DNA of 62,411 nucleotides, filler included, from Dehalococcoidia bacterium (GCA_040882355.1; 3 parts of 3 records of this genome joined end to end with filler, not necessarily neighbours in it), one strand, 5' to 3'; numbered from the whole stretch's first letter, positions 6,750-55,589 are shown. Notes: a model not told the origin generated them from the sequence alone. Made by a program: numbers and translations.

Positions 6750-7415
6750 ATGGCTGCTGACGGACAGGCGGCGAGACTACCCGGCGAGGAACGCCCGGCG
6801 CTCCGCGGCTGGATCCACGTTGCCGCATTGCTGGCGGTGGTGGCAGGCGCGGCCTTGCTCCTCGTTGTGGCCGACTCGGCTCGCGCGTACGTCGGCGGCG
6901 CCATTTTCGCGGCCAGCCTCTTCCTCCTCTACGGTACCAGCGCGACCTACCACCGGGTCCAGTGGAGCCCGACGGCGCGCCGGGTCGTGAAGCGGCTCGA
7001 CCACGCGATGATCTTCGTCTTGATCGCCGGCACGTACACGCCCCTGTGCCTGCACGTGAGCCTGGCCTGGGGCATTCCGATGCTCTCCGTCGTCTGGGGG
7101 ATCGCCGGCGCAGGCATCGTCCTCAAGCTGTTCTGGCCGGACGGCCCCAGGTGGCTGAGCGTCGCGCTCTACGTCGCGCTAGGATGGTTGGCGCTGGCCG
7201 CGGTGTCCGAGCTCGTTACGTGGTTCAGCCCGGTAGAGCTTGCCATGTTGGGCCTGGGTGGGGCGCTGTACACCGTGGGAGGCCTGGTCTATGCGGTCCG
7301 CCGCCCCGATCCCTGGCCCCGCGTCTTCGGCTACCACGAGATCTTCCACCTGTTCGTCGTGGCGGGAAGCGCGCTCCACTACTCACTCGTCGTCATCGTC
7401 GTCCTGCCAAGCTAG
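6750..7415 (+). CDS. Hemolysin III / PAQR family membrane protein
   Basis: SATYH, KRLDHAMIFVLIAGTYTP and FGYHEIFH motifs. Confidence 0.92.
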   Translation: MAADGQAARLPGEERPALRGWIHVAALLAVVAGAALLLVVADSARAYVGGAIFAASLFLLYGTSATYHRVQWSPTARRVVKRLDHAMIFVLIAGTYTPLCLHVSLAWGIPMLSVVWGIAGAGIVLKLFWPDGPRWLSVALYVALGWLALAAVSELVTWFSPVELAMLGLGGALYTVGGLVYAVRRPDPWPRVFGYHEIFHLFVVAGSALHYSLVVIVVLPS

Positions 7416-7432
7416 CCGTTCGCATCTCCTCA

Positions 7433-7475
7433 GTGCCAGGCGCTCCTTGGCGCTCTGGCAGCGCTGCCCTACGTT
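7433..7475 (+). promoter_or_regulatory. Shared particle-gene promoter, copy 1 (GTGCCA-N8-TTGGCG-N17-TACGTT)
   Basis: Same architecture and spacing as the copies at 9563 and 13337. Confidence 0.7.
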
Positions 7476-7510
7476 CGAGGCATCTCGAATTTCGGAGGCA
7501 GGAGTACCCC

Positions 7511-8002
7511 ATGAGCGATGACGAGCTGACGGCGTTGCAAGAAGAGCTGGCGGCCGCGCGAGCGGAGATGGAACGGCTGCAGGCGACGGCCGCGGACAGC
7601 CAGGCGCGGGCAAGTCACCTGGACGCGCAACTCTCGGGACTGCGCGGGGAGCTGGAGGAGGGTCGCAGCCAGGCGCAGGCCGGCGAGGAAGCGCAGGCCC
7701 TGCTGCGGGAGCAGAGCGAGTCGCTGCAGACCCAGGTGCGAGGCTCGGCGCAGCGCTACCGAGAGCTGGCGCTGCGACAGGCGCCGGAGCTCCCGGCGGA
7801 CCTGGTGGCGGGCGACACGGTGGACGAAGTAGAGGAGTCCCTTCAGCGGGCGCGCGAGACGGTTGCCAGAGTGCGGGGCCACCTGGAGCAGCAGGCGCAG
7901 GCCGGCCGCGTGCCGGTGGGCGCACCTCCGCGCTCGGGACCTGACATGGCGGCGCTGAGCGCGGAGGACAAGATCCGCCTCGGTCTCCAGCAAGGCGGGT
8001 AA
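7511..8002 (+). CDS. Putative capsid scaffolding protein (coiled-coil)
   Basis: 163 aa with an acidic coiled-coil N-terminus and a Pro-linker plus terminal helix (PVGAPPRSGPDMAALSAEDKIRLGL); GGAG RBS; lies upstream of the capsid gene. Confidence 0.6.
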   Translation: MSDDELTALQEELAAARAEMERLQATAADSQARASHLDAQLSGLRGELEEGRSQAQAGEEAQALLREQSESLQTQVRGSAQRYRELALRQAPELPADLVAGDTVDEVEESLQRARETVARVRGHLEQQAQAGRVPVGAPPRSGPDMAALSAEDKIRLGLQQGG

Positions 8003-8075
8003 CTGCTGGCAGACGGACGCACTCGATGTTGAGGCGCCGTCGCCCGCGCCGGGCAGTGCGCTGTCTGGTTCGGCG

Positions 8076-8585
8076 TTACTCTTTGGAGGCAGCGGCTGCC
8101 GTTAGGGCCTCGGTGGGGACGCGGCGCACGAAGGCGACCTCAACGCTGCAGGGCGGCGTGTGGTCGGTCCCGGCGGCCATCAGGTGCACCACGATCCGTC
8201 CAGCGCTCAGGTCTGGCGCGACCTGACCGCTCTCGTCTGTCGTTGTATTCCAGAGGACGTGGACGTGGGCGAGGACCTCCTTGCCGTCGACGACGATTCC
8301 GGTGCTAGCAAGGTGCGTCGTGCCCGTGTTGCCGGTCCACGGCAGCGGGCCCTCATGGTCGTCCAACCAGGGCAGCAGGAACATCGGTGGGGACCAGCGA
8401 GTCCCACTGACTCCGCCCAGGCAGTCGGGGAGGGTGACGTTCGCAAGCTGGACCCGGGTCTCCTGGCCCTCCGTCACCCAGACGGCGGCGCTCGGCTCGC
8501 TGTCGCCGCGAGCGAGGGTCTCGCGCATGGCGAAAGCCACCACGAACCCCAGGAGAAATGCTCCGACGATTGCCGCGATACGCAT
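8076..8585 (-). CDS. Hypothetical secreted/membrane-anchored protein
   Basis: N-terminal hydrophobic signal MRIAAIVGAFLLGFVVAFAM. Confidence 0.6.
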   Translation of the reverse strand: MRIAAIVGAFLLGFVVAFAMRETLARGDSEPSAAVWVTEGQETRVQLANVTLPDCLGGVSGTRWSPPMFLLPWLDDHEGPLPWTGNTGTTHLASTGIVVDGKEVLAHVHVLWNTTTDESGQVAPDLSAGRIVVHLMAAGTDHTPPCSVEVAFVRRVPTEALTAAAASKE

Positions 8586-8820
8586 CGCTGTTAGAATCGT
8601 CCGTTTGCTGGCGCGCCTGTGATCCTGCGCCTTAGCTATACATAACTTCCCTCTGAGGGTAGCGGGTTACGTGGAGTTGTTTCGAAGATGTAACGCCGGC
8701 CCGAGGCGGGCGGGCGGCCCCGGGCGCGGGCGCCCTTGACACACGAATGGCGGTGCTATCTGTTGCCAGCATTGGCAGGGGCCGGCGCGGAGCCGTTAGT
8801 CCAAGGACGGAGGTCAAACC

Positions 8821-9492
8821 ATGCGGAAGCTGCTCCTAGTTGCGCTGGTGGCGCTTGCCCTACTGGGCATGCGGCCGCTGACGAGTCCGCCCTCTGCGGA
8901 GGCGAGTCACGTCGATCCAGTCCTGTTTGTCCACGGCTTCACGGGAAGCTCGAGCGCATGGAACACGATGATCCCGCGCTTCCAGGCGGATGGCTGGCAC
9001 AGCAACCAGCTCTTCGCGATCACGTACAACAGCTTCCAGTCCAACGCGACCATCGCCAACCAGATCAAGACGACGGTGAACCAGATCCGCGCCACCACTG
9101 GCGCAAGCAAGGTCGACATCGTGACACACTCAATGGGCGGGCTCTCCACCCGGTACTACCTCAAAAACCTGGGTGGCGCCGCCTTCGTCGACGACTGGGT
9201 GTCGTTAGCGGGACCGAACCACGGCACAATCTGGGCGTGGGGCTGCGCGTTCCTCACACCCTGTCTGCAGATGACGCCGGGCTCCTCGTTCCTCAACAGT
9301 CTCAACTCCGTTGACGAGACGCCGGGCGCGGTGAGCTACGGCACGTGGTGGTCCGCCTGCGACGAGATCATCACGCCCGATGAGAGCGTGATCCTTACCG
9401 GCGCGACGAACACGCAAACGAGCTGCCTGCTGCACTCGGGCTTGCTCACCAACCTGGCCGTGTACAACCAGGTGCGCGACTTCGTTCGCTAG
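8821..9492 (+). CDS. Secreted triacylglycerol lipase (lipase class 2, alpha/beta hydrolase)
   Basis: Signal peptide; PVLFVHG, THSMGG nucleophile elbow, GPNHGT. Confidence 0.9.
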   Translation: MRKLLLVALVALALLGMRPLTSPPSAEASHVDPVLFVHGFTGSSSAWNTMIPRFQADGWHSNQLFAITYNSFQSNATIANQIKTTVNQIRATTGASKVDIVTHSMGGLSTRYYLKNLGGAAFVDDWVSLAGPNHGTIWAWGCAFLTPCLQMTPGSSFLNSLNSVDETPGAVSYGTWWSACDEIITPDESVILTGATNTQTSCLLHSGLLTNLAVYNQVRDFVR

Positions 9493-9562
9493 CGACGACA
9501 CGCCTCCCTCCGCCATGCTGCGCCCCGCGATCATCGCGGGGCGCAGTTGCGTCTCGGACTGA

Positions 9563-9605
9563 GTGCCAGCATGCCGTTGGTCGTTCTTCGCGAACGGCGT
9601 ACCAT
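9563..9605 (+). promoter_or_regulatory. Shared particle-gene promoter, copy 2 (GTGCCA-N8-TTGGTC-N17-TACCAT)
   Basis: Same spacing as the copies at 7433 and 13337. Confidence 0.7.
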
Positions 9606-9649
9606 CGCCGTCGTCAAGCGTTCATCTCATTTCGACGGAGGAGGCGACG

Positions 9650-10537
9650 ATGGCTCTTACACTAAGCGAAGCGGGCAAGCTCTCGAACGACGTGCTCAAG
9701 GTGGGCGTGATCGAAACGGTGATCAAGGAAAGTCCGGTGTTGCAGACGCTGCCGTTCATCGAGATCGTTGGGAACGGCCTCACCTACAACCGGGAGAGTG
9801 TCGCAGCGGCGGCGGCCTTCTTCGATGTCGGCGATACGTGGACAGAGAGCACGCCGACGTTCACGCAGCAGACCGCGACGCTCAAGATCCTGGGCGGCGA
9901 TGCCGACGTCGACAACTTCCTGGTCGCCACGCGCAGCAACGTGCAGGACCTGGAGGCGGCGATCGTCCAGCTCAAGGCGAAGGCCGTCCAGCAGAAGTTC
10001 GACGACACGTTCGTCAACGGCGACGTCGGCGTGGACGCCAAGGCCTTCGATGGTATCGACAAGCTCACGACCTCGGGCCAGACGACAAGCATGGGGACGA
10101 ACGGCGGCACGCTCACGCTGGCCAAGCTGGATGAGCTGGTCGACCTGGTGCTGGGCGGCAAGCCGGACCTGCTGCTCATGAGCAAGCGGACGCGGCGCGC
10201 GCTCAACGGCCTGGCACGCACAGCGGGCGGCTTCCTGGAGACGGACCGCAACGAGTTTGGGCAGATGGTGCAGTTCTACGATGGCGTGCCCATCGGCATC
10301 TCCGACTACATCTCGGACGCCAAGACCGTCGGCACCAGCTCGGACTGCTCGACGATCTACGCGGTCCAGTTCGGCGAGGGCAGCGTCGCCGGCTTGACCG
10401 CGCCCGGCGGCCTGGAGGTGGAGCGCGTCGGCAGCCTGGAGACGCGCGACGCCACGCGGACGCGTGTGAAGTGGTACGTGGCGCTGGCGCTCTTCAACAC
10501 CCTGAAGCTGGCCAAGCTCACCGGCGTGCGGCCGTAA
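9650..10537 (+). CDS. Phage major capsid protein (HK97-like fold)
   Basis: MALTLSEAGKL...SPVLQTLPF..I.GNGLTYNRE...LGGDADVD.F...FVNGD...FDGI...YDGVPI...STIYAV.FG...RTRVKWY; GGAGGAGG RBS. Confidence 0.88.
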   Translation: MALTLSEAGKLSNDVLKVGVIETVIKESPVLQTLPFIEIVGNGLTYNRESVAAAAAFFDVGDTWTESTPTFTQQTATLKILGGDADVDNFLVATRSNVQDLEAAIVQLKAKAVQQKFDDTFVNGDVGVDAKAFDGIDKLTTSGQTTSMGTNGGTLTLAKLDELVDLVLGGKPDLLLMSKRTRRALNGLARTAGGFLETDRNEFGQMVQFYDGVPIGISDYISDAKTVGTSSDCSTIYAVQFGEGSVAGLTAPGGLEVERVGSLETRDATRTRVKWYVALALFNTLKLAKLTGVRP

Positions 10538-10558
10538 GCTTCAGTCGTCCGGCAGACT

Positions 10559-10597
10559 TAAGGGGAAGCCCTCCCTCTCGGCGAGGGCTTCCCCTTA
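10559..10597 (+). terminator. Hairpin after the capsid gene (probable terminator)
   Basis: Perfect 15-bp stem TAAGGGGAAGCCCTC/GAGGGCTTCCCCTTA. Confidence 0.7.
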
Positions 10598-10635
10598 TTC
10601 TGCGTCCGCGTCTCGTCTTGCTAGACTTAGCTGCC

Positions 10636-13305
10636 ATGCTACGTCGTTCGCTGATGTTTGCGGCGTTCCTGTTGCTGGCGTGCTTCGCATCATCCGCCGA
10701 TCCGAACCGCGCTGGCGCGTCTCGATCAGGTGCGGCTGCGGCGCTCATTACGGGCGAACGTCAGGCGGGCGGGCCCTCCTGTCCCGACGCGCTGGGCGAC
10801 CTGGCGCTCACCACGCCCGACAGCCAGGTGGCCGTGGAAGAGGAGGAGAACGGCGAGCCCTACCAGTTCTCGTTCTCGTGCCGCTACAGCGGAGGCGGCA
10901 TTAGAGCCTTTGTTGTGGCGTACTGGTCGCTGCGACAGGAGTCCATCCTGCTTACCGACCCCTGCGACGACCCCGGCGAGGTGCAGCAGAGCCCCGCCCT
11001 CGGAACGAGGGTGATCAGTTCGGGCCGCGTGGCCTACGTGAACTTCGACTTCGAGGTCACCGTTGAGGGCGCCGATCCGGAGCCGCTCGAAGGGCCGGCG
11101 GAAGCGGTGGCGCGGACGCTCCTGGCCGCCGTGGAGCCGATGGCCGCGCCGTGCGGAGCATCCGTGACGACCGTCACGCCTCCACCGCCGTTGCTGCCGC
11201 CTACCAACACGCCGCAGGAGCGTGGCGACTGCGCCTTCCGCGGCGTCGTCCGTGACGGAGGCGCTCGCCCGGACGGCCCGCCTGAACCGGAGGGCGATCC
11301 GCTCATCGGGGTGCGCATGTCGCTCCTCTTCAACGACACGGATGAAGAGGTACAGGTGGTCGCGAGCGACGACCAGGGCCGGTACGAGCTGTTCCTCGCC
11401 GAGAGCGATCTGCCGGCGGGCTTTGATCCGCAGACGAGCGACATTCGCGTTCGGTTGCGGCTGGAGGAGTACGCGCACAGCCCCTCGCGTTTCGCCATCA
11501 GCTCGGAAGGCCAACAGACGTCGTTGCTCAGCGATCCGATCATCCTGGCGAACGAGTGCGACGACGGCCTGGTTGAGCGCGACTTCCTCATCGCCGATCT
11601 GCCACCCGACTACTTCTACGAATGGCCGTTCGCCGACAAATGGGAAGCCCTTGCTGAGATCTACGATCGCGTCCACCGCGCTACGGCGCTGGCTGACCTG
11701 CTGCAGCAGCCGTTGGACTACGGTGGTCCGCTCATCATCAGCGCCTTCGCTAGCACCGTTGACGCCGGTGGCCAGCCGCTGGCCGACTTCGATGCGGCGT
11801 ACTGGCAGGGGTGCCTCTCGACCGGGCTCCAGTGCGACGAGCAGGTCTTCATTGCTCTGGGTCACGACACCAGTGAGCTGACGGATGGAGGCTGGCCCGA
11901 CAACCGCGAGTACCACGAGTTCGGCCACCACTTCCTCGCGGACGCCTTCAACAACGCGCAGCCGAGCAACCCCGGCGATGAGAACCATGCTGGCTACTAC
12001 GCCAACCCGAGCACGACCGACTCGTTCGGCGAAGGCTTCGCCGAGTTCTACTCGATGATGGTCTCGAAACACATCGACCGCCGTCCGGCGGCGCACTACT
12101 ATCGCGTCGAGGGCAGCTACTACGACATGGAGCTCGACTTCCGCCCCTGGCTCGGACTGGGAACCGCGGAAGAGCTTGGTATCGCCGGTTTGCTGCTTGA
12201 CCTCGAGGATGGCCCCGACGACTATGCCGTCGGCCGGGAGAACGCCGCCGTCGTCGTCGATTCGTACGACATCATCGATGACCCGGCCTACGGCCGCCTC
12301 ATCGTCGGCGAGGTGACGAATCGCGCTGATGCTCTTGAGTACAGCCAGCAGACAATGGTCGCCGCCGTCTTCCGCGATGAGGCGGACAACCAGGTGGACG
12401 TCGGATACGGAGTCACCGTGCCCTGGGACATCCCGGGTGGTGAAACCGCCTTCTTCCCGATCGCGTTCCCTGAGGATCTCGTCTACGACTCTGTGGAGGT
12501 CGTCGCCTTCGAAGGCCATCCCGGCAACGTGCTCACGGATGACGACCCCGTCGACCTCGATCTGCAGGAGGTCTGGGATACGATACGCGGCTACACGAGC
12601 GAGCACCCCAACAGCAACGGCTTCCTGTTCGACGTCGCCGACCTCTACGCCGCGTTCAGCGCGGCGCAGGGCCGGATGGACAACGATGGCGACGGCGTTG
12701 ACGACGTCGACCAGGTCTTCCGCGCCCATGGCTTCTTCGCCGATGTCGATGGGGATCGCAGCTTCAGCAACGACGCTGAGCTCGGCCGCACCGACCACCC
12801 CGCCTTTGAAGCGTTTCCGGCGCGCGTTCCTCGCCGCGATCTGCCGCCCATGCCTGGCAGTCTTGCCGCAATCACCGGGGCGGCGGCGGGAACCCGCGTC
12901 CTCGTGCAGGCGTCGCTTCCGGCGCCGAACGAGTACAGCGGCTATGCCTACGTTACGACCCCAGATGACGAGGGGTACGTCCACGTCACCGTCCCGCCGC
13001 CCGAATACGAGGCGACGGTAACCCTGATCGCCTTCGACGAGGGCAATTCCGCCACCCGGATCATTGGCGAGATCGATGGCGCAGCCTTCTGGGACCGGGT
13101 CGAGGCGAACGGCGGCGAGCCGTTCCTGACCTTCGACGCCGGCGGCCCGGCTGGTAGCAGCGTGCTTCCCGCCAATGACGATGGCGATGGCGGCTCTGAT
13201 TTACTCTGGCCCCTCCTTGGTGGCGCCGCCGCGGTGGTGATCGTGGGTTTCGTCGGCGCGTACCTCGCCTACCGTCGCAGGAAGCGCCTGCCGCTCTCGC
13301 CGTAA
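10636..13305 (+). CDS. Large secreted, C-terminally anchored putative zinc metallopeptidase with an FxLYD-like domain
   Basis: Signal peptide; HEFGH with a downstream EGFAEF; IVGEVTN..VAAVFRD; DNDGDGVDD; C-terminal TM helix followed by RRRKR. Confidence 0.7.
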   Translation: MLRRSLMFAAFLLLACFASSADPNRAGASRSGAAAALITGERQAGGPSCPDALGDLALTTPDSQVAVEEEENGEPYQFSFSCRYSGGGIRAFVVAYWSLRQESILLTDPCDDPGEVQQSPALGTRVISSGRVAYVNFDFEVTVEGADPEPLEGPAEAVARTLLAAVEPMAAPCGASVTTVTPPPPLLPPTNTPQERGDCAFRGVVRDGGARPDGPPEPEGDPLIGVRMSLLFNDTDEEVQVVASDDQGRYELFLAESDLPAGFDPQTSDIRVRLRLEEYAHSPSRFAISSEGQQTSLLSDPIILANECDDGLVERDFLIADLPPDYFYEWPFADKWEALAEIYDRVHRATALADLLQQPLDYGGPLIISAFASTVDAGGQPLADFDAAYWQGCLSTGLQCDEQVFIALGHDTSELTDGGWPDNREYHEFGHHFLADAFNNAQPSNPGDENHAGYYANPSTTDSFGEGFAEFYSMMVSKHIDRRPAAHYYRVEGSYYDMELDFRPWLGLGTAEELGIAGLLLDLEDGPDDYAVGRENAAVVVDSYDIIDDPAYGRLIVGEVTNRADALEYSQQTMVAAVFRDEADNQVDVGYGVTVPWDIPGGETAFFPIAFPEDLVYDSVEVVAFEGHPGNVLTDDDPVDLDLQEVWDTIRGYTSEHPNSNGFLFDVADLYAAFSAAQGRMDNDGDGVDDVDQVFRAHGFFADVDGDRSFSNDAELGRTDHPAFEAFPARVPRRDLPPMPGSLAAITGAAAGTRVLVQASLPAPNEYSGYAYVTTPDDEGYVHVTVPPPEYEATVTLIAFDEGNSATRIIGEIDGAAFWDRVEANGGEPFLTFDAGGPAGSSVLPANDDGDGGSDLLWPLLGGAAAVVIVGFVGAYLAYRRRKRLPLSP

Positions 13306-13336
13306 GCGTCCCGGGGCAGCCCTTCCGACTCTTCGG

Positions 13337-13379
13337 GTGCCAACGCCGCCTTCGCGCTTCCCGCGGGAGAGCGTACCCT
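13337..13379 (+). promoter_or_regulatory. Shared particle-gene promoter, copy 3 (GTGCCA-N8-TTCGCG-N17-TACCCT), nearly leaderless
   Basis: Same spacing as the other two copies; ATG follows 9 nt after the -10 element. Confidence 0.7.
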
Positions 13380-13388
13380 CGTTTCACC

Positions 13389-14024
13389 ATGAACCTGCCT
13401 GAGATGCGCGCACGGGTCCGCCGCGACCTCCACGACGAAGAGCCGGCCAGCCAGCGCTGGCGCGACCCAGAGCTCGATAGGCACATCGCGAGGGCGGTGC
13501 AGGAAGCGAGCGTCGCATCGCCCCAAGAGGTGAAGTCGACGCTGACGACGACGGCCGGCAGCCGCGACCTCGACATCAGCAGCCTGAGCGGCCGCGTCAG
13601 CATCGAGGCCGTCGAGCACCCGACAGGCCAGTTCCCGCCGTCGTACGTCCGCTTCTCGGTGTGGGGCGACACGCTCACGCTGCTGCTCGACTCGCCGCCC
13701 GCCGGCGCCGAGCAGGTCGCGGTGTACTACGGGGCGCTGCACAGCCTCGACGCGACGGGCTCGACCCTGCCCGCGGCCCTGGAGGACGTCGTGGCGACGG
13801 GCGCCGCGGCGTACGCCGCGCTCGCCTGGGCCAGCTTCGCCACGAATCGGGTGAACGCCGGCGGCGACGAGACCTGGCGCAACTACCTCGTCTTCGGGCA
13901 GGAACGGCTGGCCGCCTTCGCGCAGGCGCTCGCGGAGCAGGGCCGGAAGGGCGTCGTGCGCGCGCGACAGCTCTACACGCCCGCCGGGCCGGCGCCCATC
14001 CAGTCCAGCGGCGGGCTGGCCTAG
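13389..14024 (+). CDS. Putative phage head-completion/head-tail adaptor protein
   Basis: MNLPEMRARVRRDLHD...W.D.EL...I..A N-terminal helices resemble phage adaptor proteins; capsid context. Confidence 0.55.
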   Translation: MNLPEMRARVRRDLHDEEPASQRWRDPELDRHIARAVQEASVASPQEVKSTLTTTAGSRDLDISSLSGRVSIEAVEHPTGQFPPSYVRFSVWGDTLTLLLDSPPAGAEQVAVYYGALHSLDATGSTLPAALEDVVATGAAAYAALAWASFATNRVNAGGDETWRNYLVFGQERLAAFAQALAEQGRKGVVRARQLYTPAGPAPIQSSGGLA

Positions 14025-14039
14025 CCGACACGAGCACCC

Positions 14040-16036
14040 GTGCGCACGCTCACGCCCACGTTGCTCGCCGCTCAAATGGAGCCGAGCGCCGTCCCGTTCG
14101 TCAAGGTGACGCTGCGCGACCGCGTCGCGGATGTGCCGCGCTTGCGCTGGGAGCGCCTCTACACCGGCAGCGAGGCCGACCGCTATCACGCCGCCGTCAT
14201 GCCGGGCGACGGCTCGTTGCTACGGGCGCGCATCGACCCGAGCGGCCCGACGCTCCGCTACCAGCGCGTCGCGAGCCCGGGACCGGGTGCCGCCTTCGAC
14301 TCGTGGACGGACCTGGATGACACGGCAGATGCCGGCGTCGCGATCGCGGCGTCAGGTGCGCATGTGCTGCTCGCATACGTCGCGCCGAACGGCATCCACA
14401 TCCGCATCCGCGAGAGCAGCGACAACGGCGCGACGCTTGGGTCGGTCGAGACGGCGGTCGGCGCGTCCGCGACGGTCGGCTGGCTGGCCGCCGCTATCAA
14501 GAGCGACGGCGTGGCGCTGCTCGTCTACTCGGCGGGCGGCGCCGTGTACACGGCGAAACGCGTGTCGGGATCGTGGGGTTCGTCCGTCGCGTGGCCTCAC
14601 AGCGCCGGCCAGATCACCGGCCTCGCGGTGACGCGACCGGGCGACTACGACCTCGCGATCGCCGGCGTCGACACGGGCGGCGCTGCGCGGCTGTGGACGG
14701 CGACGTACGGCGACGGCTTCGGCCAGACCGTCGACACTTGGTCGGCGCTGCGCGAGGTGGCGAAGGCGGACAGCGGCTCGGCTGTCGGGCTGCGCGCGCC
14801 CAGCCTCGGCGCGCTCGACACGCACCGGCTGTTCTTCGTCGAGGAGTATACGGGCAGCGTCGCCTACTCGCGGCCGTACTGGACGTGGTCTTCGCCGGGC
14901 CAGACGCTCGCCGAGAACGCGTGGCGGGAGCCCGTGCCCTTCGACCTGAGCAGCTCCTATGGCGTCGCGCTCACGGGCTCGGGTGCGAAGGCCTGGCTCT
15001 CGACGCCGGCCGGCGTCTGGCGTTCGCCGCTGGCGACGCCGGAGCTGGACGTGAGCGATGACGTGCTCGAACTGGCGACCGAGACGCGCCGCGCGTCAGG
15101 CCGCGCGCGCGTCGTGCTGCGCAACGACGATGGTCGTTACAACGCGCTGCCCGCCACAATCCGAGCAGGCGCGGAGCTGGCGATCAGCTCCGGCTACGTC
15201 TCCGATGTCGGCGTGGAGGTCTCGGCCGGGCCGCGCCACTGGGTGCAGGGCTGGGAGTACGCGTCGTCTGGTGGCGAGGCGACGCTCACGCTGCTTGCCG
15301 CCGACGCCTGGTCGCTGGTCGAGGCGTGGCGGGCGCGGCGCCAGTACGAATGGTCCGCGGGCAGCGAAAGCGTAGCGCAGGTCCTGCGCTTCGTTTCCGG
15401 TCGGGCGGGCGTGGGGGGGGGGGGGGGGGGGGGGCCCCCCCCCCNNNNNNNNNNGGGGGCGCCTGCTCGACCGCCACCGGCCACCGGCCCGCTTTCACCA
15501 TCCATCCCGGCGAGGACGGCCTTCGCGTCGTTCAGCGCCTCCTCGCGCTGACGCCCGATGTCGTGCTCGTGTCGGGCGCTGCCGCGCTGCTCTTCGAGCC
15601 GCTCGCCGGCGATGCTGCCGTCGCTGCTTACGGCATGGACCAGCCGATCCTGCGCGCGCGCTTCGCCTCCGCGGGGCTGCGCGCGAACCGGGTCCAGGTC
15701 TTCGGGCAAGGCGTAGTCGCCGAGAGCTTCGACTGGGACGACGTCGCCGACCGGCTCGACGGGCTGCGCCAGGTGCATGACCTCAACCTGTCATCGACAT
15801 CGCTGGCAACCGCCCGGGCGACGGCGTCGCTGCGCCAGGAGGAGCTGTCGCTGTCGCGCGGCGAGCTGGTCGCGCCCGTGCACTGCGGCCTGGAGCTGTA
15901 CGACGTGGTCTCGGTGACCGACCCGCGGGCCGGTCTGGCAAGCGCGACCTTCAGGGTTGCTGGCCTTGACCTGCGCTACGTTCGTCGGGCCCGCTCGCCC
16001 GTGTACGAGCAGCGGCTGCTCCTGGGCAGCGTGTGA
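14040..16036 (+). CDS. Putative virion structural protein: beta-rich N-terminal domain plus baseplate/tail-hub-like C-terminal domain (interrupted by a scaffold gap)
   Basis: ORFs 14040-15551 and 15326-16036 join across the poly-G/C and N gap at about 15413-15459; GRARVVLRNDDGRY and GLELYDVVSVTD...FRVAGLDLRY...YEQRLLL resemble hub proteins. Confidence 0.55.
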
Positions 16037-18654: not shown

Positions 18655-18722
18655 CGAGCCGGCGGGGGGGNNNNNNNNNNCCCCCCCCCCCCCCCTCGAC
18701 GCCGCTCCGCGCGCTGTCCCCG

Positions 18723-23019: not shown

Positions 23020-23144
23020 GTGTCATTCCCCCTTTGCTGCGCTCGATTCGTATCCTACGCTAGCTTCGGCAGGCGGGGCCCTCGGCTGTCGCCCTGCTTC
23101 CGTTCGGGTCCCGTCCCCAGGCATACTGGGCATGGAGGCGCCAG

Positions 23145-23843
23145 ATGGAGATCGTCGCCGGCGTGCACGCAATCGAGAACCTGGGCGTCGGCCGCGCGTA
23201 CCTCTATCAAGAGGCAGACCGTCTCACGCTCATCGATGCGGGCCTGGCGGGTCGCGCCGAGCGCATCCTCGCGGCCATCGAAGGCATCGGGCGGCGACCC
23301 GAAGACCTGCGCCAGATCGTGATCACCCACTGCCACAACGATCACATCGGCTCGCTCGCTGACCTCGTCGAGCGCACGAACGCGCAGGTGCTCGTGCACG
23401 CGCTCGACGCGCCGGTCGTGCGCGGCGAGCAGCCGCCCGCCGGCCCGAACCCGCGCGGCGTCTGGCGCATCGTCGCGCCGCTGCTCGCGCTGTTCCCGCA
23501 GCGCATCGCCGCGACGCGCGTGGACCGCGAGCTGGCGGACGGCGATGAGATCGACCTCGACGGCGGCGCGCGCATCGTGCACACGCCGGGTCATACGCCG
23601 GGCAGCGTCTCGATCTATCTGCCCGCGAGGCGGTTGCTCTTCGCCGGCGACGCCGCGGCGAACGCGTTCGGCCTCGGCCCGCCGTCCGGGCCGTTCGCGT
23701 TGTTCAATGACGACCACGCGCAGGCGCGCGAATCGTTCCGCAAGCTCGCGCAGCTCGACTTCGATGTCGCCTGCTTCGGCCACGGCCGACCGCTGGACAG
23801 GGACGCGTCGCTCGCGTTCCGGCGCGCCGCCGAGAAGCTGTAG
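23145..23843 (+). CDS. MBL-fold metallo-hydrolase
   Basis: THCHNDH, TPGHT, FAGD and FGHG motifs. Confidence 0.92.
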   Translation: MEIVAGVHAIENLGVGRAYLYQEADRLTLIDAGLAGRAERILAAIEGIGRRPEDLRQIVITHCHNDHIGSLADLVERTNAQVLVHALDAPVVRGEQPPAGPNPRGVWRIVAPLLALFPQRIAATRVDRELADGDEIDLDGGARIVHTPGHTPGSVSIYLPARRLLFAGDAAANAFGLGPPSGPFALFNDDHAQARESFRKLAQLDFDVACFGHGRPLDRDASLAFRRAAEKL

Positions 23844-23845
23844 CG

Positions 23846-24538
23846 ATGGAGGTCGTGCCCGGCGTCCACGGCGTCGACTTCGGCGCCGTCTGGGCGTACC
23901 TCTACCAGGAACGCGACCGCCTCACGCTCATCGACGCCGGCCTCGCGGGCCAGAGCGAAGCGGTGCTCGACGCGGTCGAGTCGCTCGGGCGAAAGCCGGG
24001 CGACCTGCGCCAGATCGTCGTCACGCACTACCACGCCGACCACTTCGGCGCGGCGGCAGCGTTGGTCGAGCGCACCGGCGCCGCGCTACTCGCGCACGCG
24101 CTCGATGCGCCTGTGGTACGCGGTGAGGTCGAAGAGCCGCTGCCGGCGCTCTCCGACGCCGAGCGGCCCTACTACGAGCAGGCGATCGCCTCGACGCCGG
24201 CCGCGCCGCGCTGCGCCGTCGACCGCGAGCTGCAGGACGGCGACGAGATCGACCTCGATGGCGGCGCGAAGGTCGTCCACGTGCCCGGGCACACGGCGGG
24301 AAGCATCGCCGTCTACGTGCCGAAGCGCCGGCTGCTCTTCTCAGGTGATGCGGCCGGGCGCACGCCGGAGGGCCAGCTCCTCCACGGCGTCTTCAACGTC
24401 GATACGGCGCAGGCGCGCGCGTCGTTCGCGAAGCTGGCGCAGCTCGATATCGAGGTGGCGTGTTTCGGGCACGGCCCGCCGCTCGACAAGGAGGCGTCGT
24501 ACACGTTTCGCAGGCTGGCGGAGAAGCTGGCGGGTTAG
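23846..24538 (+). CDS. MBL-fold metallo-hydrolase (tandem paralog)
   Basis: THYHADH, PGHT, FSGD and FGHG motifs. Confidence 0.92.
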   Translation: MEVVPGVHGVDFGAVWAYLYQERDRLTLIDAGLAGQSEAVLDAVESLGRKPGDLRQIVVTHYHADHFGAAAALVERTGAALLAHALDAPVVRGEVEEPLPALSDAERPYYEQAIASTPAAPRCAVDRELQDGDEIDLDGGAKVVHVPGHTAGSIAVYVPKRRLLFSGDAAGRTPEGQLLHGVFNVDTAQARASFAKLAQLDIEVACFGHGPPLDKEASYTFRRLAEKLAG

Positions 24539-27970: not shown

Positions 27971-28070
27971 NNNNNNNNNNNNNNNNNNNNNNNNNNNNNN
28001 NNNNNNNNNNNNNNTTAATTAATTAANNNNNNNNNNNNNNNNNNNNNNNNNNNNNNNNNNNNNNNNNNNN
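27971..28070. other. Artificial contig-join linker
   Basis: N44-TTAATTAATTAA-N44, with stops in all six frames. Confidence 0.97.
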
Positions 28071-55489: not shown

Positions 55490-55589
55490 NNNNNNNNNNN
55501 NNNNNNNNNNNNNNNNNNNNNNNNNNNNNNNNNTTAATTAATTAANNNNNNNNNNNNNNNNNNNNNNNNNNNNNNNNNNNNNNNNNNNN
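55490..55589. other. Artificial contig-join linker
   Basis: N44-TTAATTAATTAA-N44. Confidence 0.97.

Follow-up and report, generated by a model that had tools for sequence, protein, structure and literature searches.

Exactly placed box promoters shared by phage-like particle genes of a Dehalococcoidia bacterium and its Chloroflexota relatives

How might the genes for a phage-like particle be switched on together when they lie in separate units of a bacterial chromosome, with other genes in between? The question is raised by a stretch of 62,411 nucleotides (nt) from the Dehalococcoidia bacterium assembly GCA_040882355.1 (three records joined end to end with filler; hereafter the window), in which a scaffold-like gene, a major capsid gene and an operon that begins with a head-tail adaptor gene form three such units. 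A first-pass annotation, made from the sequence alone, had proposed that the units share one exactly spaced promoter motif, through which a dedicated activator or an alternative sigma factor switches them on jointly. The observation of shared, exactly placed box promoters is confirmed, and the regulon interpretation as a whole is partly supported. The shared box probably serves as the switch that the genes of a host-kept phage-like particle have in common.

The pattern GTGCCA-N8-TTNNNN-N17-TACNNT has exactly three matches in the window, all on the plus strand and one before each of the scaffold, capsid and adaptor units, and none in 100 dinucleotide-preserving shuffles (mean 0.00). At all three sites (GTGCCAGGCGCTCCTTGGCGCTCTGGCAGCGCTGCCCTACGTT; GTGCCAGCATGCCGTTGGTCGTTCTTCGCGAACGGCGTACCAT; GTGCCAACGCCGCCTTCGCGCTTCCCGCGGGAGAGCGTACCCT), the start of GTGCCA lies 37 nt before the −10 element, as the first-pass annotation had stated (7433/7470, 9563/9600 and 13337/13374). 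The hexamer GTGCCA by itself is not over-represented (17 copies on both strands of the window vs 30.2 expected); the signal therefore resides in the composite and its placement. Each site has the layout of a sigma-70/sigma-A promoter, with TT at −35, a 17-nt spacer and a TACNNT −10 element, together with a feature of activator-type promoters, namely a non-consensus −35 hexamer (TTGGCG, TTGGTC and TTCGCG) and a conserved box 8 nt upstream of it. Because the hexamers are weak, a generic promoter/terminator consensus scanner picked up none of the three promoters; it also picked up neither of two strong hairpins described below. Motif scans of the window found no box site before the lipase gene or the gene for an 889-residue protein that lie between the units, in agreement with the earlier reading.

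The start codon follows the −10 element by 35 nt at promoter 1 (scaffold-like gene), by 44 nt at promoter 2 (capsid gene) and by 9 nt at promoter 3 (adaptor gene). Since the adaptor gene starts so close to the −10 element and has no ribosome-binding site, the messenger RNA (mRNA) of the adaptor unit is probably leaderless. Start codons are found 6–10 nt past the −10 element at several orthologous sites, as leaderless transcripts from real promoters would have.

Capsid relatives allow the box to be followed well beyond the window. The capsid protein has 5598 homologues at E ≤ 0.001, the best 120 of which are 80–100% identical. From 177 genome stretches encoding a capsid relative, one genome per species, the best 80 were taken as genome loci (1.31 Mb; capsids 71–82% identical); these belong to Chloroflexota labelled Dehalococcoidia, Tepidiformales, Thermoflexus and Anaerolinea. 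A second set comprises 80 independent metagenome loci (0.51 Mb), and the window plus all 160 loci amount to 1,887,147 bases.

On both strands of the genome loci, GTG[AC]CA-Nk-TTG[AG]C occurs at 30 sites with k = 8 and at 0–5 sites with each other k from 3 to 13. In 24 of 29 cases, a promoter-like site (TTG[AG]C-N18-20-TA...T) in the 300 nt before a particle gene has the box, defined here as GTG[ACT][CT][AC] 14 nt before the −35. Elsewhere in the same loci the box accompanies 8 of 167 such sites, five of which head particle units that gene mapping had missed. The independent metagenome loci reproduce the box pattern. In the window and all loci combined, a relaxed form of the motif falls on the same strand as the particle genes 99 times and on the opposite strand 2 times, and 79 of the 99 sites lie within 400 nt upstream of a mapped particle gene. 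Unbiased counts of 6-mers in 238 unique upstream regions place GTGCCA (31 forward, 7 reverse-complement) and GTGACA (30 and 7) among the most strand-specific hexamers, beside ribosome-binding words and TTCTAT.

Gene by gene, the arrangement box-N8-TT stands before 32 of 42 scaffold, 18 of 77 capsid and 2 of 46 adaptor genes, as well as before genes for a 132-residue protein (8/19), a small protein with four conserved cysteines and a helix-turn-helix (Cys4-HTH; 3/24), a protein of about 460 residues with a beta-propeller (3/21) and a membrane protein (2/6); the reverse-complement control gives 3 of 238. Sites next to the capsid gene have the same layout in three relatives (L001, L152 and L153). 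In relatives, box sites also precede portal, Cys4-HTH, 132-residue, 105-residue membrane-protein and propeller genes. The expectations of the first-pass annotation that the motif would stand above background, be conserved before orthologous genes and lead to missing members are borne out by these counts, with conservation extending across the phylum and the further members lying in relatives.

Neither the 8-nt linker nor the spacer shows sequence conservation among the sites, which argues for selection on the box itself. In addition, the box recurs before different genes in one genome and in lineages whose capsids are 71–85% identical. In our reading, the box is a functional element used mainly, not solely, by particle genes. 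An origin of the pattern by chance, or as functionless inheritance from duplicated phage promoter remnants that happen to agree, is very improbable: the pattern was indeed defined after the sites had been seen, but no shuffle reproduces it, the spacing peak is sharp, and the box is kept at this divergence while linker and spacer sequences differ.

The orthologous promoters fall into two classes, distinguished by the palindrome GAAC-N4-GTTC. In the stretch that runs from the −35 to just beyond the −10, it is found with no more than one mismatch at 45 of 69 unique particle sites, and the other 24 sites lack it. In the operator class (45 sites), the −35 is TTGAC in 36, the −10 begins with TAT in 28, and the box reads GTGACA in 28, GTGCCA in 15 and GTGTCA in 2. 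In the operator-less class (24 sites), the −35 is TTGG.. in 19 and TTGAC in 2, the −10 begins with TAC in 15, and the box reads GTGATC in 9, GTGCCA in 8, GTGACA in 6 and GTGTCA in 1. The three window sites belong to the operator-less class, and the scaffold promoters of related loci share the class of promoter 1.

lexA genes carry their own operator. In five related genomes (G001–G005), GAAC-N4-GTTC follows the −10 element of the lexA promoter, exactly in four and with one mismatch in the fifth, so the palindrome can be taken as the LexA operator in these bacteria. It is also the LexA motif of Gram-positive bacteria in the part of the published account considered here (PMC3323433). We note that these lexA genes (L141–L145), with TTGACA-N17/18-TAnnnT followed directly by GAAC-N4-GTT(C/T), make a clean LexA-operator reference for uncultured Chloroflexota. 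The promoters of ribosomal RNA (rRNA) genes and of lexA in the related genomes have the form TTGACA-N17/18-TAnnnT; because these same-clade promoters keep TTGACA, the weak −35 elements of the particle promoters are not an effect of base composition.

A LexA-repressed SOS promoter was considered for the window sites and rejected, the operator being absent. The best matches to GAAC-N4-GTTC at the three sites have 3, 3 and 2 mismatches; no exact LexA box occurs anywhere in the window, and one-mismatch boxes number 15 vs 21.2 expected by chance. The nearest relative in the genome collection (L001; 82% capsid identity) combines the two designs. Its operon of membrane-protein, terminase and Cys4-HTH genes starts with CTGACA-N8-TTGACT and has GTAC-N4-GTTC over the −10, and the promoters of its portal gene, capsid gene and adaptor operon fall in the operator-less TTGGCG class. 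In three other loci (L026, L031 and L183), the Cys4-HTH gene has its own promoter with box and operator, 9 nt before its start.

On balance, and with slightly better than even confidence, we read the window sites as sigma-A-type promoters that depend on a shared activator bound at the box. The box, GTGMCA (M, A or C) at about −49 to −44, would bind a positive factor that brings RNA polymerase to the promoters, and the three window sites would be working sigma-A-type promoters heading three transcription units. A protein bound at this position beside a poor −35 typically activates through contact with polymerase. We infer activation rather than repression, and the weakness of the −35 elements in the window fits dependence on an activator. 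Of the agents named in the first-pass annotation, an activator is in keeping with the sigma-A-like hexamers and the weak −35; the word 'dedicated' was too strong, as the box is also found at host genes and in a repeated cassette. The system is classified here as activator-type late promoters of a domesticated phage particle.

The two promoter classes suggest how such an activator could be linked to DNA damage. In most lineages, a consensus −35 with a LexA operator over the −10 would let the DNA-damage response gate the promoters directly. In the lineage of the window, the structural-gene promoters would have lost the operator and, with a weak −35, would rely on the box-binding factor; it is the lost operator and the weak −35 together that lead us to expect this dependence. 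A cascade would be the likeliest arrangement, in which a LexA-gated early operon (small membrane protein, large terminase and Cys4-HTH) comes on first and the factor then activates the box promoters of the genes for the portal, the scaffold, the capsid and the adaptor and tail. The combination of promoter types in L001 speaks for such an order. If the damage signal has been kept, it would enter through the early operon, and the second-tier factor may be the Cys4-HTH protein itself.

The Cys4-HTH protein (83–110 residues) is the only DNA-binding protein of the module. It combines four conserved cysteines with a helix-turn-helix (Pfam HTH_23/PF13384, 29.6 bits, cut-off 24.6), and its C-terminal three-helix unit is modelled with a block-mean predicted local distance difference test score (pLDDT) of 73–90. 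The best rows of a fold search are LuxR/GerE-type domains (E 0.35 and up) and resolvase HTH domains, with Mu Mor at rank 41. We regard its identification as the box-binding factor as tentative, and doubtful rather than likely. Membership in the Ogr, Mor or C families is unsupported, given a weak Pfam Mor match (E 0.01) and a non-significant fold search. In G002, the match to the Cys4-HTH gene (L125/L127; G002:C1, ~2,745,480–2,745,710) consists of two overlapping pieces in different frames, which points to a frameshift or a sequencing error in the assembly.

Several observations weigh against an activator-dependent particle regulon of this kind. The promoter activity and the start sites of the three window sites are predictions from sequence, a search for RNA runs containing positions 7300–14100 returned none, the orthologous promoters are non-independent samples, and the window contains no Cys4-HTH, portal or terminase gene. 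The recognition helix of the Cys4-HTH protein is the same across lineages with GTGACA, GTGCCA and GTGATC boxes, so that, with no covariation, the protein is not tied to the box, and its fold search gave no match at E ≤ 0.001. Sites of the same layout precede recA (G003), the tRNA-Arg gene, priA and a TPR gene (G004), rpoB, birA and a glyoxalase gene (G002) and groES (G005). Whole-promoter copies, about 69 in G005 and about 67 in G068, stand before diverse genes, each with about 700 nt behind it that show no evident reading frame. Finally, capsid-negative genomes of the class also exceed the reversed control in motif number (95 vs 50 matches, n = 66), as capsid-positive genomes do (145 vs 66, n = 80).

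The counts behind these points come from scans of whole genomes with GTGMCA-N8-TTS-N19-21-TANNNT, set against a reversed control. Four related genomes (G001–G004) have 3, 6, 6 and 5 matches (control 1, 0, 1 and 0) and the fifth, G005, has 69; the non-particle site in G001 precedes a gene for an unknown 102-residue protein. Across 151 genomes of the class, 432 matches stand against 123 in the control, with a median of 1 per genome, and the numbers become 240 vs 116 when the five genomes with at least 10 matches are set aside. The excess shows no clear difference between capsid-positive and capsid-negative genomes, many of the latter being incomplete assemblies. Two site-rich capsid-negative genomes hold a Cys4-HTH gene, and one of them holds a portal gene too.

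The copies in G005 and G068 (L084, L089, L098, L102, L106–L110 and L226–L231) share one layout, with a GTGACA box, CCCC-TTGAC, the palindrome GTAC/GAAC-N4-GTAC/GTGC and TATATT, and look like a mobile promoter-leader cassette that shares the particle-promoter design. No module gene was found in G068 (67 sites), in which a contig ends 2 kb from a G005-type site; the Cys4-HTH gene is 2.5 kb past the corresponding site of G005. The absence of the module from G068 is therefore likely due to an assembly break. Rfam searches of the regions downstream of the non-particle sites and of the G005 cassettes gave nothing, save one threshold microRNA row below the gathering score, which we take as chance. 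A conserved stretch of about 20 nt, CCGAAAAGTGCCGACCAATT, recurs in G002 about 100 nt past each of three box-type promoters (L081, L091 and L096); it matches neither a tRNA nor an Rfam family and is possibly a small repeat or a leader element. At recA, the box stands at 8 nt in G003 (L082/L138) and, by eye, at 9 nt in G004 (L137), both without a LexA box, and the recA genes of G001, G002 and G005 have LexA-like boxes but lack the upstream box, a hint that recA control may be independent of LexA in G003 and G004.

The reader of the box could also be RNA polymerase, or a general factor attached to it; the box would then be an upstream strength element, much like an UP element or an extended −35, that marks strong Chloroflexota promoters. 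We hold this to be unlikely, though it is the alternative to be taken most seriously. The box lies where the alpha subunit makes its contacts in Escherichia coli, and a general element would account for sites before groES, rpoB, tRNA-Arg, priA, birA and recA in single genomes, for the 67–69 cassette copies and for the excess in capsid-negative genomes. The box is, however, present in none of 9 rRNA promoter-like sites of the five genomes and in none of 5 lexA promoters. The median of only 1 match per genome is low for a general element, and the concentration on particle genes (24 of 29 promoters vs at most 8 of 167 others; 99 vs 2 sites by strand) speaks against it. With about 2000 promoters per genome, we estimate about 1 chance co-occurrence, near the non-particle counts in G001–G004.

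An alternative sigma factor might read the operator-less class (box, TTGG(A/C)G and TAC..T), the lineage of the window having brought its structural genes out of sigma-A/LexA control and under a dedicated sigma. The departure of that class from consensus is consistent (TTGG.. in 19 and TAC in 15 of 24), while rRNA and lexA promoters keep TTGACA. The same box nevertheless stands at the same 8-nt distance on the consensus sigma-A promoters of the LexA class, the spacers of 17–18 nt and the TAnnnT −10 are sigma-A traits, and the module has no sigma gene, which makes this alternative improbable. The sigma-54 layout is not found. Read as its reverse complement, TGGCAC, the box might recall a sigma-54 promoter; none of the three places matches TGGCAC-N5-TTGCW even with 2 mismatches, and the orientation would be away from the genes.

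About equally improbable, in our judgement, is a box that binds a repressor or an architectural protein, or that forms the distal half of an operator, and silences the particle genes. Tight repression would be expected if particle production is lethal, as it likely is, and possible dyads can be pointed out, GTGATC followed 11 nt on by GAGATCGC in some operator-less scaffold promoters and TGCCAG followed by CTGGCA in window site 1. The suspected dyads are, however, not common to the three window sites. Furthermore, activators typically bind at positions such as −49 to −44, which lie upstream of the core contacts of polymerase, and the weak −35 hexamers argue for needed activation.

With an activator at the box still the favoured reading, a wider extension of it can be stated, to which we give little credence. 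The box would be the label of a phylum-wide particle regulon, read by the Cys4-HTH protein of the module; DNA damage would free the early operon that encodes this protein from LexA, and the protein would then fire all box promoters. The structural genes in the lineage of the window, having given up their LexA operators, would have become wholly second-tier, and in some lineages the cassette would have captured the promoter design and put dozens of host genes under the particle programme.

The genes served by the box form a set that is kept across the relatives. Both the set and its order (scaffold, capsid, adaptor, ~460-residue and ~190-residue proteins) are retained in the 80 + 80 loci. Among the 80 genome loci, a scaffold-like homologue lies directly before the capsid gene in 56, an adaptor homologue is present in 52, a homologue of the ~460-residue protein follows the adaptor gene in 49, and ruvB is present in 12. 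Relatives have further module members, namely the 105-residue membrane protein, a terminase-like protein (three PHROG large-terminase families, E 4e-6 to 3e-5), the Cys4-HTH protein, a portal (PF05133, 3.8e-20) and the 132-residue protein; the window has none of them. Of 151 genomes sampled from the class, 82 have a capsid relative (34–82% identity). There is one match in 76 of these 82, and in five of the remaining six the additional matches seem to be fragments of a single gene. Phage-derived structural genes that are vertically inherited, interleaved with host genes and without nearby integrase or replication genes are as found in domesticated regulons of the gene transfer agent (GTA) type. 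From its sequence, this vertically inherited, phage-derived particle gene set of Chloroflexota is a candidate GTA-like system.

In the operator-less clade, box promoters also stand before a 768-residue protein with a C-terminal patatin-like phospholipase domain (L033, 14479–16961) and before an unrelated-looking 780-residue protein (L029, 14174–16780), relatives of which are encoded 1–7 kb after the capsid gene in seven other loci. Both proteins are possible lysis or accessory members.

Within the window (Table 1), genes were called from codon-position GC content, Pfam and PHROGs. The hairpin directly before promoter 2 resembles a terminator or an insulator. Pfam and profile scans of the window found no gene for a portal, a terminase or an integrase, and the remainder of it is ordinary chromosome (kdp, uvrB, dnaB, rplI and others). 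The lipase, 169-residue and 889-residue proteins have no homologue in the 160 related loci; their genes are therefore lineage-specific insertions. The lipase–capsid and 889-residue–adaptor joints are spanned, with 0 differences, by contigs that the same study obtained from three other samples, so the interleaved arrangement is not an assembly artefact. Runs of N (scaffold gaps) lie at 15445–15454, 18671–18680, 27971–28070 and 55490–55589; the first hides the end of the ~460-residue gene and the start of the ~190-residue gene, and the third cuts uvrB.

Three gene names given in the first pass find no confirmation. The label 'peptidase' for the 889-residue protein is not sustained, since the protein has only a sub-threshold CarboxypepD_reg match; it has a signal-peptide-like start and a C-terminal tail that is hydrophobic and basic. 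A promoter-like site, TTGCTA-N16-TACGTC, ends 6 nt upstream of an alternative ATG (10654) of this gene, which may for that reason be leaderless as well. The name 'hub' (or 'nozzle') for the propeller protein is unconfirmed, though 'hub' is plausible from gene order, and 'OB' for the ~190-residue protein is a putative label. Neither the ~460-residue nor the ~190-residue protein has a Pfam or PHROG match. A model of the former (468 residues; pLDDT 91.9, predicted template-modelling score 0.88) shows a beta-propeller followed by a beta domain, and fold searches against solved structures and viral predicted structures returned generic propellers only, at template-modelling scores of about 0.4. Besides the three promoters, the window has a single match to the relaxed pattern. 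This candidate fourth site lies in a divergent gap, 83 nt upstream of two metallo-beta-lactamase-fold genes (23145–24538; Pfam).

Table 1. Positions of the box promoters, neighbouring genes and hairpins in the window
Feature	Coordinates	Strand	Basis and details
HlyIII-family gene	6675–7415		Gene calls/Pfam
Promoter 1	7433–7475	+	Box GTGCCA 7433–7438; −35 TTGGCG 7447–7452; 17-nt spacer; −10 TACGTT 7470–7475
Scaffold-like coiled-coil gene, 163 residues	7511–8002	+	phrog_1793 head scaffolding protein, E 4.7e-4; weak coiled-coil Pfam matches
Unknown gene, 169 residues	8076–8585	opposite	Gene calls
Secreted class-2 lipase gene	8821–9492		Gene calls/Pfam
GC-rich 14-bp hairpin, after lipase gene and directly before promoter 2	9517–9547	+	−36.3 kcal/mol; z −5.08; 0/200 shuffles as stable
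Promoter 2	9563–9605	+	Box GTGCCA; −35 TTGGTC; 17-nt spacer; −10 TACCAT
Major capsid gene, HK97/SU10 type, 295 residues	9650–10537	+	phrog_212, 4.2e-76; PF05065, 1.1e-10; PF17236
Strong hairpin with T-rich tail after capsid gene, terminator-like	10559–10597	+	−42.3 kcal/mol; z −6.72; 0/200 shuffles as stable
Secreted-protein gene, 889 residues, between capsid and adaptor genes	10636–13305		No family above threshold; sub-threshold CarboxypepD_reg match
Promoter 3	13337–13379	+	Box GTGCCA; −35 TTCGCG; 17-nt spacer; −10 TACCCT
Head-tail adaptor gene, 211 residues	13389–14024	+	PF24175 SU10_adaptor, 6.3e-11; phrog_399, 3.9e-5
Gene for ~460-residue protein, beta-propeller and C-terminal beta domain	14040–15443	+	3′ end enters N gap 15445–15454
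Gene for conserved ~190-residue protein	15458–16036	+	Homologue in 45/80 genome loci
ruvB	16378–17412		Gene calls/Pfam
Candidate fourth site	23020–23061	+	GTGTCA-N8-TTGCTG-N16-TACGCT; only other relaxed-pattern match in window

To our knowledge, domesticated phage particle systems with a known switch number only a handful, and none has been described for Chloroflexota; we found no description of such a Chloroflexota particle or of its promoters in the open-access literature searched. A short, exactly placed cis element allows the full regulon, lysis and accessory genes included, to be listed in uncultured genomes, and it offers a direct bench test of the factor. The two classes provide a natural comparison between direct LexA repression of strong promoters and operator-less weak promoters that need an activator. 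The module is also present in an assembly labelled Thermoflexus hugenholtzii JAD2 (L055), which makes the predictions testable; we take Thermoflexus hugenholtzii to be a cultured species.

Among known systems, the late genes of phages P2 and Mu are switched on by small zinc-finger or helix-turn-helix activators (P2 Ogr, Mu Mor and C) whose sites adjoin the −35 on its upstream side, or overlap it, at every late promoter. Their sites are dyads, whereas the box described here consists of one 6-bp element at a constant distance of 8 nt. The following comparisons draw on parts of the published accounts and are meant within those parts. The SOS promoters with a Cheo box (PMC3323433) have the same palindrome that is found, with no more than one mismatch, in 45 of 69 orthologous particle promoters and in the five lexA genes. 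The three window promoters differ from them by 2–3 mismatches, and the lexA promoters have no upstream box.

The GafA and GafYZ/RogA regulons of GTAs appear to be the closest described regulons. In Caulobacter crescentus, the GTA is under GafYZ/RogA control (PMC11150451, PMC9632790), and the likeness lies in a host-kept particle cluster under a dedicated activator; the Caulobacter genes form one long operon with activation and anti-termination, unlike the several short units here with their own promoters and terminator-like hairpins flanking the capsid gene. The Rhodobacter capsulatus GTA has a GafA-dependent multi-locus regulon (PMC6363796, PMC9638019, PMC5026251), in which particle genes of a domesticated phage at several chromosomal places are jointly switched on by a direct activator under host control, much as proposed here. 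The phylum, the capsid lineage (SU10/podovirus-like here) and the cis element differ, and no GafA relative was detected here. Host control in R. capsulatus involves CtrA and quorum sensing, unlike the LexA control that most Chloroflexota lineages here would have. The existence of an operator-less promoter class also sets the Chloroflexota system apart from the systems described so far in this comparison.

The closest described promoter appears to be the late promoter P3 of the Bacillus thuringiensis phage GIL01, which is controlled by LexA-gp7 repression and the small activator gp6 (PMC6182141). In the part of that account considered here, the element is a temperate phage, unlike the chromosomal, vertically inherited gene set of Chloroflexota, and gp6 is homologous to LexA, while the module has as its only DNA-binding protein the Cys4-HTH protein, known from sequence alone. 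The three window promoters also differ from P3 in having no LexA box. What P3 would share with the system described here is a virion-gene promoter that has LexA boxes and needs a small element-encoded DNA-binding activator, the site of which overlaps the −35. This likeness matches the orthologous LexA-type promoters, with their three parts (box, −35 and operator over the −10), as well as the delay that the proposed cascade would bring.

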